Part shown: positions 8,556 through 23,910 of the stretch, in pieces | How positions within the stretch are numbered: the stretch's first letter is position 1 | Layout of the letters: every line of letters begins with the position of its first letter | NCBI GenBank assembly: GCA_016928955.1 | Contig: JAFGJV010000037.1 | Coordinates: 62,001-98,110, forward strand | DNA from: Spirochaetales bacterium | Lineage (GTDB): Bacteria; Spirochaetota; Spirochaetia; Treponematales; UBA12059 | Direction of reading: 5' to 3' | Length of the DNA stretch: 36,110 nucleotides | Notes under the pieces: generated by a model | Database searches by the model: none | Seen by the model: the letters and a program-made list of their open reading frames with translations, nothing else | Told to the model about the DNA's origin: nothing | Made by a program: the position numbers and the translations under genes

Positions 8556-9200
8556 TCAGTCCAGCCGCTCGTGCCGGAGGCGGTTTTTTATGGACAGCAT
8601 GGCGTAGCCTGAGGACAGGTCCTCGTTCTGCACGACCACGTCCTCCGGAGCCTTGACCTTGACGTTGGTGAAATTCCAGAGCGCCTTGACGCCACAGGAC
8701 ACCAGCTGGTCCGTAACCATCTGAGCGAATTCCGAGGGTACGGTCAGTACGGCCGTGGTCACGCCCAGCTGGGGAAGCCGGCTGGACAGGTCCGTTATGG
8801 GATACACCGGCACACCGTACACCTTGGCGCCTGTTTTCTTGGCGTCGGCGTCAAAACCGGCGACGATGTTGAGACCGTGCTTCTTGAAACCGGGAAAGCC
8901 TATCAGGGCGCTGCCCAGGTTTCCGGTGCCTATCACAACGGCCTTCACTTCCTGGTCCCAGTTCAGGTAGCTCTCAATGGCCTTGACCAGGGCCTCCACC
9001 GGGTAGCCGCGCTTGGGCTTGCCCACGATTCCGGTGATGGACAGGTCTTTCCGTACCTGAATGGGTTCCAGGCTGAGCTCGTTGGCGATAACGGTGCCGG
9101 AGAGAAATTCGTCGCCGTGCTCAAAGGCCTGCCGCGCGATGAGCAGGTAGGACGGCAGACGCCTGACGGACGGTGCGTAGGATACCTTGATCTTGTACAT
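8556..9200 (-). CDS. rex: Redox-sensing transcriptional repressor Rex
   Basis: RRLPSY, QVRKDLS..G..G....GY winged helix, Rossmann VIGTGNLGSAL, LTVP..AQ, LWNF. Confidence 0.93.
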   Translation of the reverse strand: MYKIKVSYAPSVRRLPSYLLIARQAFEHGDEFLSGTVIANELSLEPIQVRKDLSITGIVGKPKRGYPVEALVKAIESYLNWDQEVKAVVIGTGNLGSALIGFPGFKKHGLNIVAGFDADAKKTGAKVYGVPVYPITDLSSRLPQLGVTTAVLTVPSEFAQMVTDQLVSCGVKALWNFTNVKVKAPEDVVVQNEDLSSGYAMLSIKNRLRHERLD

Positions 9201-9437
9201 AGCCTATCCTGAAATTCGGGTTTAGCTCGGCTGGCCCGCCGCCGGCAATTCACGATTAAGGTATATCGTGTGAAATGTCAAGAAAAAGTACGATATCCAA
9301 CCCAGCGGCCGAACCTGGAACGGCGACTGAAAGGAATAGGCAGCGGGTATCGGAGGGCGTGTGCCCCGCCGGGGAGCCGGGAAGCTCTCTGTCTGTATAT
9401 CGCACAGGTTAATGAGCATTTGCCCATAATATAGCAT

Positions 9438-9505
9438 AAAAAGAAAGCTCCGTGGAAAAAGGAGGTAAAACCACGGAGCTTGTGCCGAACCGCTGGGGTC
9501 CGACC
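9438..9505 (-). ncRNA. Candidate small RNA with anti-Shine-Dalgarno terminator loop
   Basis: Two hairpins (GUCGGACC/GGUUCGGC; AAGCUCCGUGG/CCACGGAGCUU with loop UUUUACCUCCUUUUU) followed by UCUUUUU; own promoter immediately upstream. Confidence 0.6.
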
Positions 9506-9510
9506 GTATT

Positions 9511-9539
9511 ACTATACCTACTATACCGGTTTTATGCAA
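9511..9539 (-). promoter_or_regulatory. sigma70 promoter of the candidate sRNA
   Basis: TTGCAT-17 nt-TATAGT. Confidence 0.7.
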
Positions 9540-9897: not shown

Positions 9898-10326
9898 ATG
9901 CGAATGACGACCAAGGGCAGATACGCTCTTCGTGCTACACTTGCCCTTGCCAGGATATCCAACGGATCCCCGGTTCCCGTGTCCATCAAGGCCATTGCCG
10001 AGGCTGAGGACATATCCCCGGAATTTTTGGAACAGATATTCTACCGCCTCCGCAAGGCCGGCGTGATAGCATCCGTGCGCGGGCCAGGGGGCGGCTTTCA
10101 TTTTTCCCTACCCTTGGACGGCATCAGCGTCAAGCTGATCCTGGACGCCGCCGGGGAGGACTTTGACGTGGCGCCGTGCACGGATACCAACGCGGAGCCC
10201 TGCCCCAAGGCGAGCAGTTGCCAGGCCGGGCTGGTATGGAAGCGCCTGCACGGCGTTATCGACGACTATCTGGACGGAACTACCCTGGCTGACATACTGT
10301 CAGGAAGCCCGTCGCCCGCCAGCTAA
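9898..10326 (+). CDS. Rrf2 family transcriptional regulator
   Basis: MRMTTKGRYALR, IAEAEDIS..FLEQI...L.KAG...SVRGPGGG; three Cys (C-x7-C-x5-C) as in Fe-S-binding members. Confidence 0.92.
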   Translation: MRMTTKGRYALRATLALARISNGSPVPVSIKAIAEAEDISPEFLEQIFYRLRKAGVIASVRGPGGGFHFSLPLDGISVKLILDAAGEDFDVAPCTDTNAEPCPKASSCQAGLVWKRLHGVIDDYLDGTTLADILSGSPSPAS

Positions 10327-10363: not shown

Positions 10364-11758
10364 TCACTCGGCGTCCGCGAAGTCCTCCATGGTCCTTCTC
10401 TGCTCGTCGCTTATGAGCCCGAGCTCCTGACAGAGGGCAAAAAGCTCCCTGACATGGAAAAAGGCCCGCAGCCTGACGCCCTGGGCATCCATGTCGACCC
10501 TACCCTGCCGCCCGCGCTCTATCAGCACGGCCAGGTCCTCTACCACCAGGCCCTCATCCCTGAGTATGGCTATGGCTTCCAGTTTTGAGCTACCCGTGGT
10601 GATCAGGTCGTCCAGGAGGAGAACTCTCTCCCCGGGCTTGAAGTCGCCCTCCACCCGGTTGCCCGTGCCGTGGTCCTTGACCGGCATGCGCGGCCATACC
10701 ATGGGCTTGCCGAGCCTCAGGGCCGTGGCAGTGGCCAGGGGCAGGGCCGCCGCAGGTATGCCCGCCACGCGGTCGAATTCCAGACCTCCGGCCAGCATCG
10801 CGTACGCGTTTGCCACCGCCGACAGGAGCCCGGGATCCGATATCACGCGCCTGAGATCCACGTAAAACGGCGAACGTTTGCCGCTCTTCAGGAGGAAATC
10901 TCCCGTGCGGAAGCAGCCAGAGTCGGCCAGGCCGCGCATGATGCGCTTTTTGAGCGCCTGGTCCCGCTTGGGGCGCCTACCGCCGGCCGATAGAGCTGCC
11001 GCCTTCCTGAGATCCTCCGCCAGGGCGCGGGCCGCGGCGGCCGGGTCCGGGGCGTCGGCCACGGAGCGGGCGGCCACGGGTATCAGCCCCGAGCCATCGT
11101 CCCTGGCGCCGGCCGCCCAGGCCGATGCTATGGTACCGCCCTGGGCCCCTATGCCGGGCGCAAGGATCCATGCGTCCGGGGCGGCCGCCCGGACGGCTGC
11201 CAGGGAAACAGGGTCGTTCCCGGGCGCCACCAGGGCTACCCTGTCAGACCAGGTAACGGCCTCTGCGGCCACTGCCTCGTACAGGGCCGTGCCTCCCACG
11301 GGCAGGTCCTGGAACACCCCCGCTCGGGGATTGCTGGTTCGGGCCAGAACGAACACCGCCTTGTCAGGGTATGCCAGGAAGGGATCCACAGAATCGCGCC
11401 CGAGGTACGGGCTGAGCGTTACCGCGTCCGCGCCCAGGCTGGCAAAGCAGGCCATCGCGTATGCCTCTGCCGTGGAACCTATGTCTCCGCGCTTGGCGTC
11501 CAGGAGCACGGGAGCCTCCGAGGGGATGTCGCGGATAAGCCGGGCCAAGGCCGCCATGCCGTCTGCTCCGTGGGCCTCAAAAAAGGCTATGTTCGGCTTG
11601 AAGCAGGCCGCCCAGGGCAGGGTCGCCTCTACCAGCCTCATGGACTGTGAGTACAGCAGCTCCGGGTCGCCACCCGGGGGCAGGCGCGGATCCAGGCCCA
11701 CGCACAGGAGCGTGCCTTTGTTCTTCCAGGCTTCTTCGACGCGTTCGAAAAATGTCAT
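10364..11758 (-). CDS. pyrF: Bifunctional orotidine-5'-phosphate decarboxylase / orotate phosphoribosyltransferase (PyrF-PyrE fusion)
   Basis: N-term LCVGLDP, FKPNIAFFE, LDAKRGDIGST, RTSNP, PGIGAQGG; C-term F.LKSG.RSPFYVDLR, KDHGT, LLDDLITTGSS. Confidence 0.93.
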   Translation of the reverse strand: MTFFERVEEAWKNKGTLLCVGLDPRLPPGGDPELLYSQSMRLVEATLPWAACFKPNIAFFEAHGADGMAALARLIRDIPSEAPVLLDAKRGDIGSTAEAYAMACFASLGADAVTLSPYLGRDSVDPFLAYPDKAVFVLARTSNPRAGVFQDLPVGGTALYEAVAAEAVTWSDRVALVAPGNDPVSLAAVRAAAPDAWILAPGIGAQGGTIASAWAAGARDDGSGLIPVAARSVADAPDPAAAARALAEDLRKAAALSAGGRRPKRDQALKKRIMRGLADSGCFRTGDFLLKSGKRSPFYVDLRRVISDPGLLSAVANAYAMLAGGLEFDRVAGIPAAALPLATATALRLGKPMVWPRMPVKDHGTGNRVEGDFKPGERVLLLDDLITTGSSKLEAIAILRDEGLVVEDLAVLIERGRQGRVDMDAQGVRLRAFFHVRELFALCQELGLISDEQRRTMEDFADAE

Positions 11759-11884
11759 GGGAATGCCTCACGGCCGGCGGGATGCGGCCCAAGGTCACAA
11801 GCGGGCCACGACAGGATAGCACGGGCCGCGCGGACGCGTCAAACCGGCGCTCCGCTTGGAGGACTCAAAAGCCGTCCCCGGTAT

Positions 11885-12000: not shown

Positions 12001-13335
12001 ATGAGGAAATTCACCATAGTAGCGGCCCTCGTCCTGGCGTGCGCCGGAGCCTGGGCCCAGGACGATGGCGGCTTGGACTTCCAGGCGGGCATCACCCTCG
12101 GCACTGACGTCATCATCGACGCGTACGGCAACCCGCAGACCTGGAACAGCCTGGGCTTCCAGCCAGACCTGTCGCTGGGCAACTTTGGCGTGGGCTTTGA
12201 CCTGACCATGCGTTTCAAGCTGGCTCCCACCTCAGGCACGGCCATGGAAATCTACCCCGGCGACTGGGTACCCGACTATGAAGGCTCCGGGCGCAGTTTC
12301 CTGGACCTGTACCTGCCCAAGATCATGTACGTGCGCTATGGCCAGCGGGGCGACCCTTTGTACGCCAAGCTCGGCTCCATAGACGACCTGACGCTGGGCA
12401 CGGGCTTCATCGTGGGCGACTACGCCAACACCCGCTTCCTGCCCGATCTCCGCATCTTCGGCCTCCAGCTCAACCTGGACGGGTCCCTCTTCGACTTCCC
12501 GTACATCGGCGTGGAGCTCCTCACGGGCAACCTGGCGCGTATGGATGTCCTGGGCGGCCGGCTCTATGTCCGGCCGCTGGCGGGTACCGAGATACCGCTA
12601 TTGAGCAAGCTCCAGATCGGCGGCACGGCCGCGGCTGATTTCCAGCCCGAGCTGTACGTGGACACGCCGCTGGGCAACGACCCGGTGGCCATGTTCGGCG
12701 CCGACCTGTACCTGCCGCTGATAGAGGGCGACGCCTTCCCGCTGGCCGTCTTTACCGAGCTTGCCTTCCAGCCCCAGTCGCGCACCGGCTACATGCTCGG
12801 CGCGGCCGGCCGCCTGATAGGCATCATCACCTACGGCGCCCAGCTCAGGTTCTTGTCGCCAGGCTTCATACCTACCTATTTTGACGCCAACTACGACATC
12901 TACCGCGCGGTCAAGTCAGACGTGATGGAAAGCGCCCCCTCTGGCGACCCCTTTGCCGGCTGGATGGCCAAGGCCGGCGCCAGTTTCCTGGAAGACAAAA
13001 TCTTCTTTGACGTGACCGTGGACGGTCCCTTTGCGGCCAATCCCGTGGTGCCCACGGACAATCCCGCCGAGTACCCGCACCTGCGCGGCGTGGCGGGCAT
13101 CGGGGAGGGCATCCTGGGCGGCTTCTTCTTCGACTTTGCCTACGACAAGTATTTCCTGGGCAAGGAGGGCGCCTTCTTCTCGGAGCTGGTCGACCCGACC
13201 AACGCCATCATCACGGCCGCCGTCAACTTCAAGACCGGGGCGGCTGTTTTTACCCTGCTGTATAACCTGACCTACAACCCGGAAGACGGGGACTTTGACG
13301 TGACCTCGAGCCTGCAGAGCTCGATCAAATTCTGA
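12001..13335 (+). CDS. Putative outer-membrane beta-barrel protein (unknown function)
   Basis: GAGGAGG RBS, Sec signal peptide MRKFTIVAALVLACAGAWA, amphipathic Gly/aromatic beta-strands, C-terminal Phe. Confidence 0.7.
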   Translation: MRKFTIVAALVLACAGAWAQDDGGLDFQAGITLGTDVIIDAYGNPQTWNSLGFQPDLSLGNFGVGFDLTMRFKLAPTSGTAMEIYPGDWVPDYEGSGRSFLDLYLPKIMYVRYGQRGDPLYAKLGSIDDLTLGTGFIVGDYANTRFLPDLRIFGLQLNLDGSLFDFPYIGVELLTGNLARMDVLGGRLYVRPLAGTEIPLLSKLQIGGTAAADFQPELYVDTPLGNDPVAMFGADLYLPLIEGDAFPLAVFTELAFQPQSRTGYMLGAAGRLIGIITYGAQLRFLSPGFIPTYFDANYDIYRAVKSDVMESAPSGDPFAGWMAKAGASFLEDKIFFDVTVDGPFAANPVVPTDNPAEYPHLRGVAGIGEGILGGFFFDFAYDKYFLGKEGAFFSELVDPTNAIITAAVNFKTGAAVFTLLYNLTYNPEDGDFDVTSSLQSSIKF

Positions 13336-22530: not shown

Positions 22531-23434
22531 TCCCTTTTCCGCCCAGGCGGACACGGATTTTACCCGCGCCCGCCTCAGGGAAATCCTGTCCCGCATAGGC
22601 GGCTTCCTGGCGCCTCGGCCGCGCCGCATCCTCAGCCTGGACGAGGTAAAGGCCTTCCTCAAGCCCCGTTCCGAGGCCTACCGGGGCGTCATACCCGTTC
22701 CGGTAGCCCTGATCGTGGGCTCGGAAGGCAGATACCGGGACTTTGCCCGAGGGTTTTTGCCCCGTCACGAGCACCTCCGCCCCCGATGGGTGCGCGTCGA
22801 CCTAGCCCACTACCGGGACATACCCCTGCCCCCAATCAGGCTCTACGAGCTGGGCGGCGCGTATTTTGTCCGCGACGGCAACCACCGGGTGTCCGTGGCC
22901 AAGCTCAGGGGGGCAGAGACCATAGACGCCGAGGTCACGTCCCTGGGCTCAGAGGTGGCCATCAAGGCGGACATGACCCTTGACGAGCTCAAAAAGGCCG
23001 TTATCGGCTATGAAAAGGCCGTGTTCTACAAAAACACGGGCTTTGGCCGCATCACCGGGGACCAGAACCTGGATTTCAGCTCCCCTGGACGCTATGACGA
23101 GATCATGGAGAATATCCTGGTCCATAAATACTACATCAACCAGGCATCCAGCTCGGAGATCAGCCTGGACGACGCTATCCGCTCCTGGTACCAGAACGTA
23201 TACGCGCCTATCGTGGACACTATTAAAGCGGAGCGCCTGGCCGTGCGTTTCCCCGGCCGCACGCCCTCGGACCTCTACGCGTATATGGTAAAACACTGGG
23301 GCGTGCTCAAGCGCAGCTACGGGGTGCACCTTCCCGCCCAGGACGCCGCCAGGGACTTTTCCCGGCGGTACGGCAAGGATCTGTGGCGGCGGGTCCGCGA
23401 TTTTTTCAGCCGCAAGCAGCGTCCCGAGGCGTAA
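22523..23434 (+). CDS. ParB/Srx-like N-terminal domain protein with DUF4032-like C-terminus
   Basis: IVGSEGRYRDF, PPIRLYELGGAYFVRDGNHRVSVA; C-term HKYYINQ...AIRSWYQNVY.P. Confidence 0.75.
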   Translation: MPDPFSAQADTDFTRARLREILSRIGGFLAPRPRRILSLDEVKAFLKPRSEAYRGVIPVPVALIVGSEGRYRDFARGFLPRHEHLRPRWVRVDLAHYRDIPLPPIRLYELGGAYFVRDGNHRVSVAKLRGAETIDAEVTSLGSEVAIKADMTLDELKKAVIGYEKAVFYKNTGFGRITGDQNLDFSSPGRYDEIMENILVHKYYINQASSSEISLDDAIRSWYQNVYAPIVDTIKAERLAVRFPGRTPSDLYAYMVKHWGVLKRSYGVHLPAQDAARDFSRRYGKDLWRRVRDFFSRKQRPEA

Positions 23435-23505
23435 CCAACCCAGCTCGTCGTTGTTGTTTGTGTGCGGCTGTCGGACGGCGCCGTGTTCCTCCTTTCCGTG
23501 GTGCT

Positions 23506-23542
23506 CCCCGGGGCCGGCATATGAGCCCCGGGGCCTTTTTTT
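23506..23542 (+). terminator. Intrinsic terminator after the ParB-like gene
   Basis: CCCCGGGGC...GCCCCGGGG-CC-TTTTTTT. Confidence 0.7.
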
Positions 23543-23739: not shown

Positions 23740-23910
23740 ATGGGACAGGTTAGTAAGAACTCTCGTACGACCAGCACCACCCATCGCTTCTACTGCCCCT
23801 GCGGCGGGGAAGTCAAGATGAAGACGCTGTTCGAGGACGGCAAGATCAAGAACGTAGCCGAATGCGAGAAGTGCAAGCGCGTGGAGCGCAGGCCCAGCGA
23901 CTTTGTCTGA
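23740..23910 (+). CDS. Small (56 aa) basic zinc-ribbon-like protein
   Basis: AAGGAG RBS; CPCGG...CEKC; host-like codon usage; followed by a terminator. Confidence 0.75.
   Translation: MGQVSKNSRTTSTTHRFYCPCGGEVKMKTLFEDGKIKNVAECEKCKRVERRPSDFV

Follow-up and report, generated by a model that had tools for sequence, protein, structure and literature searches.

A candidate small RNA gene upstream of rex in a spirochaete, with a terminator loop resembling the 16S rRNA tail

The window analysed here, 36,110 nucleotides of contig JAFGJV010000037.1 from a Spirochaetales bacterium, belongs to a spirochaete-like genome of 2.87 Mb that has a G+C content of 63% and is 99.5% complete. An intergenic gap in this window is flanked by rex on the minus strand (8556-9200; Pfam PF06971 and PF02629), which belongs to the redox-sensing repressor family, and by a divergent gene for an Rrf2-family regulator on the plus strand (9898-10326; Pfam PF02082). 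The element studied here lies in this gap and reads on the minus strand towards rex. A sigma70-type promoter consists of a -35 box, TTGCAT (9539-9534), and a -10 box, TATAGT (9516-9511; homologue consensus G-TATATT-TATAC), with a spacing of 17 nt, and from the position of the -10 box an RNA of 68 nt is predicted to run from about 9505 to 9438. It would comprise a 5' hairpin of 8 bp with two G-U pairs (9484-9504), a perfect 11-bp intrinsic-terminator stem (9445-9481) that holds the 15-nt pyrimidine loop UUUUACCUCCUUUUU (9456-9470), and the U tail UCUUUUU (9444-9438). The loop has a mean unpaired probability of 0.98 and includes ACCUCCUUU (9466-9458), which is identical to the 16S rRNA 3' tail; the motif CCUCCUUUU occurs once in the RNA. 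The computed folding energy of the RNA is -30.5 kcal/mol, as opposed to -23.9 kcal/mol for about the same span of the plus strand. Downstream of the terminator, rex has a separate promoter, TTGACA-18-AATCGT (9252-9281). TATAGT is present twice in a 9-nt tandem repeat (9511-9525, minus strand); of the two copies, the downstream one has the 17-nt distance to TTGCAT and the other does not.

A reading of the window made without database searches (the sequence-only reading) had proposed this combination of minus-strand promoter, 5' hairpin and 11-bp terminator with the UUUUACCUCCUUUUU loop, and all of its parts were recovered where that reading had placed them. The same reading described the promoter as near-consensus; while both boxes are present at 17-nt spacing, the -35 box matches only three of the six consensus letters. 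A program-based consensus scan called neither a promoter nor a terminator at the element, the former because of this -35 box and the latter because the loop is longer than the scan permits.

We searched for the 801-nt intergenic region at the DNA level and obtained matches in 19 of 41 genomes, representing 11 of 24 genera. Except for two short matches at the starts of rex and rrf2, the matching sequence was the element alone. At all 19 of these first loci the element is upstream of rex on the same strand, and rrf2 is beside it at nine. In metagenome contigs, a strict pattern yielded 29 loci; the 27 that passed a filter for the U tail (L336 and L347 were left out) represent 23 distinct loci, and all 27 have the promoter as well as rex downstream. 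Searching from rex, the element was found upstream at 15 of 30 rex loci, i.e. 9 of 11 in the family of the host, 6 of 12 in a second family, and none of the five and two rex loci of two further families. When 38 rex-linked promoters were aligned at 17-nt spacing, TTGCAT was present in 22 and TTG in 31, with the consensus CTTGCATAAA...GTATATTTATAC; this alignment favoured TTG-type sites at 17 nt, and the conservation of the -35 box is therefore partly circular. Just 15 of the 38 promoters have an exact GTAT-N4-ATAC palindrome spanning the -10 box, and this palindrome may reflect mere promoter conservation.

The predicted RNA has a length of 64-77 nt and the same two-hairpin fold in all 35 correctly parsed homologues (of 37; the mis-parsed copies L041 and L211 were left out), and the conserved promoter is predicted to lie 24-36 nt before the terminator stem. 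The 5' hairpin starts at most 4 nt from the RNA start in 35/35 homologues; its sequence varies freely while its structure is kept, and in 20/35 it is more stable than 95% of shuffles. Moreover, the pair probability of the terminator is 1.0 in 35/35 homologues, and the unpaired probability of the anti-Shine-Dalgarno (anti-SD) sequence is 0.89-1.0. For 16 of 18 homologues, folding was more favourable on the minus strand than on the plus strand, in agreement with the proposal that the G-U pairs of the 5' hairpin favour the minus strand. Among contigs from four sequencing runs, which are contigs only and give no ends, strand or level, one DNA-like contig spans 8950-9544, and three of the runs do not cover the element.

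BLAST of the host genome with the element returned no second copy, and no Rfam family matched the window at threshold. The element exceeds what chance would give: among 162 terminator-like hairpins genome-wide, CCTCC is found in four loops and ACCTCCTT in two, both in members of the family described below. Two other loop sequences recur among these terminator-like hairpins (12 and 7 entries), which suggests small families of repeats.

When one genome per species was scanned for the exact pattern, at least 120 loci were obtained, including three chance pattern matches without a stem (L043, L100 and L145). Among the 120 pattern matches listed, 103 have no rex nearby, 40 of these having only about 300 nt of flank. 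The 80 titled matches listed comprise 76 spirochaetes, two unclassified records with rex downstream and two records from other phyla without the stem; the spirochaete titles are Treponema sp. and Spirochaetaceae bins, Spirochaetales, and named Sphaerochaeta and Pleomorphochaeta records. A covariance model of 48 positions, which covers the terminator hairpin only, aligned 100 matches, three of them false (L145, L043 and the second L003 match). In the stem alignment, 98.7% of cells are paired, eight of ten pairs have changed on both sides, and one stem position has unambiguous C-G, G-C, A-U and U-A pairs. Stem covariation was 0.568, whereas shuffles gave 0.173 and sliding of the structure no more than 0.151; this control is generous in that the structure was derived from the same, related sequences. 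The core of the loop is fixed despite widely differing genome G+C.

The model matched all 35 genomes of the host family at E≤1e-4 and 33 at 1e-7. Among 141 genomes of the class, 102 had matches at E≤1e-3 and 78 at E≤1e-7, often with two to four copies, and in a phylum-wide sample 11 of 61 genomes had matches at 1e-6. No match was found in any of eight small genomes of one family (f8), nor in two large families of other classes in the phylum-wide sample (0/7 and 0/5). The model also reaches about 31 bits on two of three control genomes that were reached through the chance-match loci, and matches weaker than E 1e-7 are therefore not counted as secure. Many relatives have a second single-stranded copy of the motif or tandem hairpins (38 of 146 loci, and L186). 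The 5' parts differ between subtypes, and the homology among these subtypes covers the terminator hairpin alone. In total, the best explanation of these patterns is that the element would be one subtype of a spirochaete-wide set of RNAs that share an anti-SD terminator loop behind different promoters.

Subtype A, to which the element belongs, is rex-linked and has a sigma70-type promoter and one motif, whereas subtype B has a TTGACA...TGGATATT promoter and a longer 5' part. Subtype C has the promoter motif GTAAC-N16-18-GTT, which precedes 41 of the 137 copies away from rex and none of the 27 linked to rex, and which is found in 3 of 320 control windows; its members usually have a second single-stranded ACCUCCUUUU, and some of their loops are without the A (UUCCUCCUUU). 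The host genome has two further family members. One is a subtype B copy of about 250 nt on contig C10 (35.9 bits). The other is a subtype C copy inside the window (23431-23542, plus strand) with a GTAAC-17-GTT promoter and a hairpin that has UUCCUCCUUUC in its loop, followed by a terminator in the loop of which the motif is no longer present; the neighbours of this copy are those of full anti-SD copies in two other genera (L230, L239, L198, L241 and L243). In the host genome, GTAAC-17-GTTTG is also found directly before a gene for an ECF-type sigma factor with Pfam regions 2 and 4 (L295:307-1398; G000:C27). The assignment of the GTAAC-GTT motif as an ECF promoter is well founded, although inferred, and it is probable from these sequences that this sigma factor autoregulates its promoter and shares it with the subtype C RNAs.

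Several further observations concern these loci. The ECF-type sigma factor gene is followed by what, by eye, is likely a gene for a zinc-binding anti-sigma factor. Just downstream of the subtype C RNA in the window is a gene for a 56-aa Cys-rich protein (23740-23910, plus strand), which has no Pfam match and is 82-89% identical in other genera. The third member of the host genome (L151; G000:C10, about 11485-11775, minus strand) is highly structured, with a TTGACA...TATTAT promoter and the terminator loop CUUAACCUCCUUGU; it lies upstream of a gene for a cNMP-binding protein and has shorter relatives (L235, L238 and L246-L250). At L186 (G068), L188, L189 and L190, one or two promoters are followed by anti-SD hairpins in tandem or in close repetition, a modularity like that of the cuckoo RNAs discussed below. 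At three loci in two distant families (L259, L262 and L264), a terminator with the anti-SD loop directly follows genes that were identified by eye as tRNA genes. The RNA at these three loci is possibly derived from a tRNA trailer, and a pure terminator or a protein-binding role would explain them too.

The 16S tail reads GGAUCACCUCCUUUC in all five relatives examined. The view of the loop as a mimic of the 16S anti-SD is supported by nine letters that are identical to this tail and by the CCUCC core, which is kept in relatives; some lineages lengthen the match to AUCACCUCC or CUCACCUCC. Of 2317 predicted start regions, 155 (6.7%) pair with the loop at -12 kcal/mol or below, compared to 0.46% of windows internal to coding sequences, a 15-fold enrichment. 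Because any anti-SD sequence by definition pairs with ribosome-binding sites (RBSs), this enrichment is no proof of regulation. Twenty shuffled loops reached 12-124 start regions at -12 kcal/mol (estimated from a quarter of the genes), and the 16S tail itself reached 379 start regions compared to 155 for the loop and paired more strongly with most of them.

A target search in which the loop was compared with 2315 predicted start regions, taking accessibility into account and relying on a rough gene caller (2322 genes), gave a continuum of binding energies with no standout target. Pairing was poor with the RBSs of rex (-4.9) and rrf2 (-6.8), and the RBS before 13355, which the sequence-only reading had put forward as a target within the window, ranked only 145th of 943 scored. 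In 26 genomes of the family, AAAGGAGGT-N4-9-ATG gave 55 matches compared to 50 for a reversed control, with none in the host genome; among the 30 of the 55 matches that were translated, no gene recurred beyond an 11-codon frame in one genus. Altogether, neither start-region pairing, nor comparison with the 16S tail, nor the AAAGGAGGT-ATG pattern identified a conserved target. A match of stem arm plus loop to an SD-spacer-AUG sequence was considered and dropped, as the stems of the subtypes do not keep it. By the same AAAGGAGGT-ATG counts, the textbook strong RBS is not more frequent in these 26 genomes than the reversed pattern, even though the 16S tail is of the standard type.

A scan at Rfam gathering level gave no match in the window and none at eight metagenome homologue loci. 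The best sub-threshold match was LhrC (RF00616) on the right strand, with 21.1 bits and E=1 compared to a gathering score of 110; on the loci of 14 relatives, the LhrC model gave 30-35.6 bits for four, three of these on the strand of the element. The element is most like LhrC and RepG, and it did not fall within any of the named families tested. As described in the available text, the RNAs LhrC1-5 of Listeria monocytogenes block the SD sequence of lapB by means of three CU-rich sites, including the terminator loop, and do not need Hfq (PMC4132741). The element shares with LhrC a C/U-rich seed that is exposed in the terminator loop and flanked by U runs, the presence of several copies per genome and, in Sphaerochaeta-type relatives, a second single-stranded copy of the motif. 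By contrast, its motif is ACCUCCUUU rather than CUCCC-UUUU, it has one seed (two at 38 of 146 relatives' loci) rather than three, it is 68 nt long whereas the LhrC model has 111 positions, it belongs to another phylum and it has no link to LisRK; moreover, LhrC blocks an SD sequence (PMC4132741), whereas the pairing of the element is computed. In RepG of Helicobacter pylori, according to the text available, the terminator loop, rich in C and U, suffices as pairing site and targets a homopolymeric repeat of G in the leader of tlpB (PMC8295292). Both RNAs have two stem-loops, a terminator loop rich in C and U, and a gene next to a regulator gene; however, the element has the complement of an SD rather than a run of C, RepG is confined to Helicobacter (PMC8295292), and RepG gave no sequence match and, for the window at E≤10, no Rfam match.

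The Cuckoo/RSs0680 (CcsR) RNAs of Alphaproteobacteria, in the part of the source available, carry CCUCCUCCC in each of two to four hairpins, after which comes a separate hairpin of the terminator-like type; Hfq binding is described for RSs0680a (PMC4615179). They resemble the element in that an anti-SD sequence is fixed in loops while the stems vary by compensatory change, in being multi-copy, in the stress-sigma promoters of some members, and in the tandem hairpins of the relative at L186. They differ in that the element has a single ACCUCCUUU in the terminator loop, one motif hairpin and a host in which Hfq was not found, and in taxonomy, 76 of the 80 titled matches listed being spirochaetes. 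CCUCCUCCC is absent from the loops listed for relatives; the collecting pattern required ACCUCCUUUU, and the loops found by the model show no CCUCCUCCC either. RoxS/RsaE of Bacillales, as far as the source could be consulted, also has C-rich pairing regions, and RoxS is repressed by Rex via a site at its promoter (PMC5419742). By contrast, no match to the Rex consensus is conserved at the element, its link to rex is adjacency alone, and the four C-rich regions and the Rfam match of RoxS/RsaE are lacking. Finally, the accessible description of MtrR and LdsR of Borrelia burgdorferi is of pairing sRNAs in an Hfq-less host, MtrR having up to 92 partners (PMC13734083). Like the candidate RNA, they are spirochaete sRNAs of the base-pairing kind with G/C-rich seeds; compared by description, they differ from it in being 3'-UTR-derived (MtrR on plasmid lp54) with seeds beside a 3' hairpin, and MtrR is found in Borrelia only (PMC13734083).

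Our search of the openly accessible literature found no description of the element in print, and an entry in an sRNA table is possible. The accessible part of PMC7160235 contains no such RNA, the supplement of PMC8632094, in which Leptospira biflexa was analysed, names no Treponema or Sphaerochaeta genome in its accessible part, and the available main text of PMC11109978 names no spirochaete.

The sequence-only reading had interpreted the element as a stand-alone, undescribed sRNA with an anti-SD loop, probably a translational repressor; this interpretation stands as that of a candidate, in that the unit is conserved, its stems covary and it belongs to no Rfam family. We conclude that a genuine regulatory RNA of 68 bases with a 16S-tail-like loop is very probably encoded here, by an uncatalogued gene. 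With an own predicted promoter and terminator, no ORF and a conserved unpaired seed, it would have the general features of a trans-acting anti-SD sRNA. We consider it likely that this RNA acts in trans and independently of Hfq, with the terminator loop pairing with SD sites to repress translation, and the observations in favour of this reading include own promoters in many gene contexts and covariation of the stem around a fixed core. In this mechanism, the sigma70-type promoter, the function of which is suggested by its conservation, would start the RNA, the 5' hairpin probably protects its end, and the terminator hairpin, the structure of which is supported by covariation, would end transcription and hold open the 16S-tail-like loop. 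The loop core, CCUCCUU, could pair in vivo with SD sequences of the AAGGAGG type, while the flanking U runs could pair with A or G, giving a longer duplex over purine-rich RBSs and a broad range of targets. Such pairing would block loading of the 30S subunit and repress translation, probably followed by decay of the mRNA. Hfq and ProQ were not found in the host genome, which is 99.5% complete, and by analogy with LhrC and RepG the RNA may act without either of them; KhpB/Jag, RNase Y and CsrA are encoded, and csrA adjoins a FliW-like gene.

Some alternatives keep the RNA and change its partner. One view, which we regard as doubtful, is that the family consists of class-wide decoys of the 16S tail rather than conventional sRNAs with specific targets. 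In this view a single module, placed under the control of several sigma factors, with the housekeeping one beside rex and an autoregulated ECF sigma elsewhere, and also in tRNA trailers, would compete broadly with the ribosome for SD-led initiation or would bait a tail-binding factor. For the element itself, it is unlikely that the mimicry operates through a protein, by binding or titrating a factor for the anti-SD tail or the 30S platform, or through global damping of SD-led initiation. Candidate factors are Era, bS21/bS1 and a maturation nuclease. The nine-letter identity, its extension in some lineages to AUCACCUCC or CUCACCUCC, a loop that is fixed despite wide differences in G+C, the same loop after tRNA genes at L259, L262 and L264, and searches of start regions and patterns that found no specific target are all consistent with such a decoy. 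However, Era needs the GAUC part of the 16S tail, which is missing in subtype A, and some loops of subtype C have lost the A (UUCCUCCUUU); therefore, the conserved core is the SD-pairing part. Repeated motif copies and sigma-specific paralogues also fit regulatory pairing better. Even less probable are base-pairing partners other than RBSs, i.e. G-rich leader tracts, GGA-rich RNAs or CsrA sites, or other sRNAs in a sponge mechanism. CsrA is encoded beside a FliW-like gene, no RBS stands out as a target, and RepG's terminator loop, rich in C and U, in the text available, acts on a G repeat (PMC8295292); nevertheless, the core complements the SD exactly and is no run of C, and its pairing is 15-fold enriched at start regions relative to the interiors of coding sequences.

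Other alternatives take the trans-acting role away. We hold it to be very unlikely that the element is a leader or attenuator of rex, with the promoter reading into the terminator and regulated read-through controlling rex, as the sequence-only reading had offered as an alternative. Its position upstream of rex on the same strand at 19/19 first loci and 27/27 metagenome loci, and its presence at 9/11 and 6/12 rex loci of two families, would fit this role. However, a TTGAC-type rex promoter follows the terminator at 30 of 39 loci, a number that rises to 35 if the pattern is relaxed, the terminator has a pair probability of 1.0 in 35/35 homologues with no conserved antiterminator fold, and pairing of the 5' part with a terminator arm is no better than in shuffles (mean -0.8 kcal/mol, mixed sign); moreover, pairing of the loop with the RBS of rex is poor (-4.9), half of the 30 rex loci (15) are without the element, and most members, including 103 of 120 pattern matches listed (40 with about 300 nt of flank), lie away from rex. 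The separate rex promoter and the lack of a conserved alternative fold also led us to reject a riboswitch-type leader. It is least likely of all that there is no RNA gene and that the element is either a plain terminator or a repeat, or else a sequestered RBS of the plus strand or the cis-antitoxin of a small toxin gene. The plus strand does read AAAAAGGAGGTAAAA; against this, no minus-strand gene upstream needs a terminator, a conserved promoter precedes the stem by 24-36 nt, the element is single-copy by BLAST, the G-U pairs favour the minus strand (16/18), and no viral contig matched. On the opposite strand, an ATG at SD spacing is present in only 3 of 185 distinct copies, so that the relatives exclude an RBS role, as had been argued for the window itself. 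A type I antitoxin or hidden RBS was rejected on this count together with that of any start codon (5 of 185 copies), and a phage element on 0 matches in viral contigs. We favour, as before, the trans-acting RNA that pairs with SD sites.

This trans-acting RNA would be a precisely bounded and deeply conserved candidate sRNA across a large part of Spirochaetia, in a genome without detectable Hfq or ProQ; the spirochaete sRNAs that we found in print come from Borrelia. The mechanism, if true, is of a known kind. Given that the seed is one short, cleanly mutable loop, the specificity of an RNA that fits every strong SD sequence becomes testable, as do the question of which protein helps, KhpB being present, and an independent origin of the LhrC-like design in spirochaetes.

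The suggestion in the sequence-only reading that the RNA is under redox control by Rex or Rrf2 was not borne out, as no Rex-box-like site is conserved near the promoter and rrf2 adjoins the element at just 9 of 19 loci. In the scan of 19 loci, the best matches had three to six mismatches at unrelated positions, relative to the Rex consensus, from which the spirochaete motif may differ; a lineage-specific Rex operator at the sRNA promoter is possible. The TATCGAT motif of rex promoters is not conserved at the sRNA promoter. At many rex loci, with or without the sRNA, TTATCGAT lies either within the stretch from the -35 to the -10 box of rex or next to these boxes (L307, L310, L313, L316, L322 and L324), and in the window the rex promoter contains the inverted repeat CACGAT-N8-ATCGTG (9250-9275). 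From its sequence and position, TTATCGAT is a candidate autoregulatory operator unlike the Rex box consensus.

Elsewhere in the window, the gene at 12001-13335 (plus strand) encodes a secreted or outer-membrane-like protein of 444 aa that has no Pfam match and lies upstream of a gene for a FecR-domain protein; as judged by eye, the two proteins have a similar C-terminal region.
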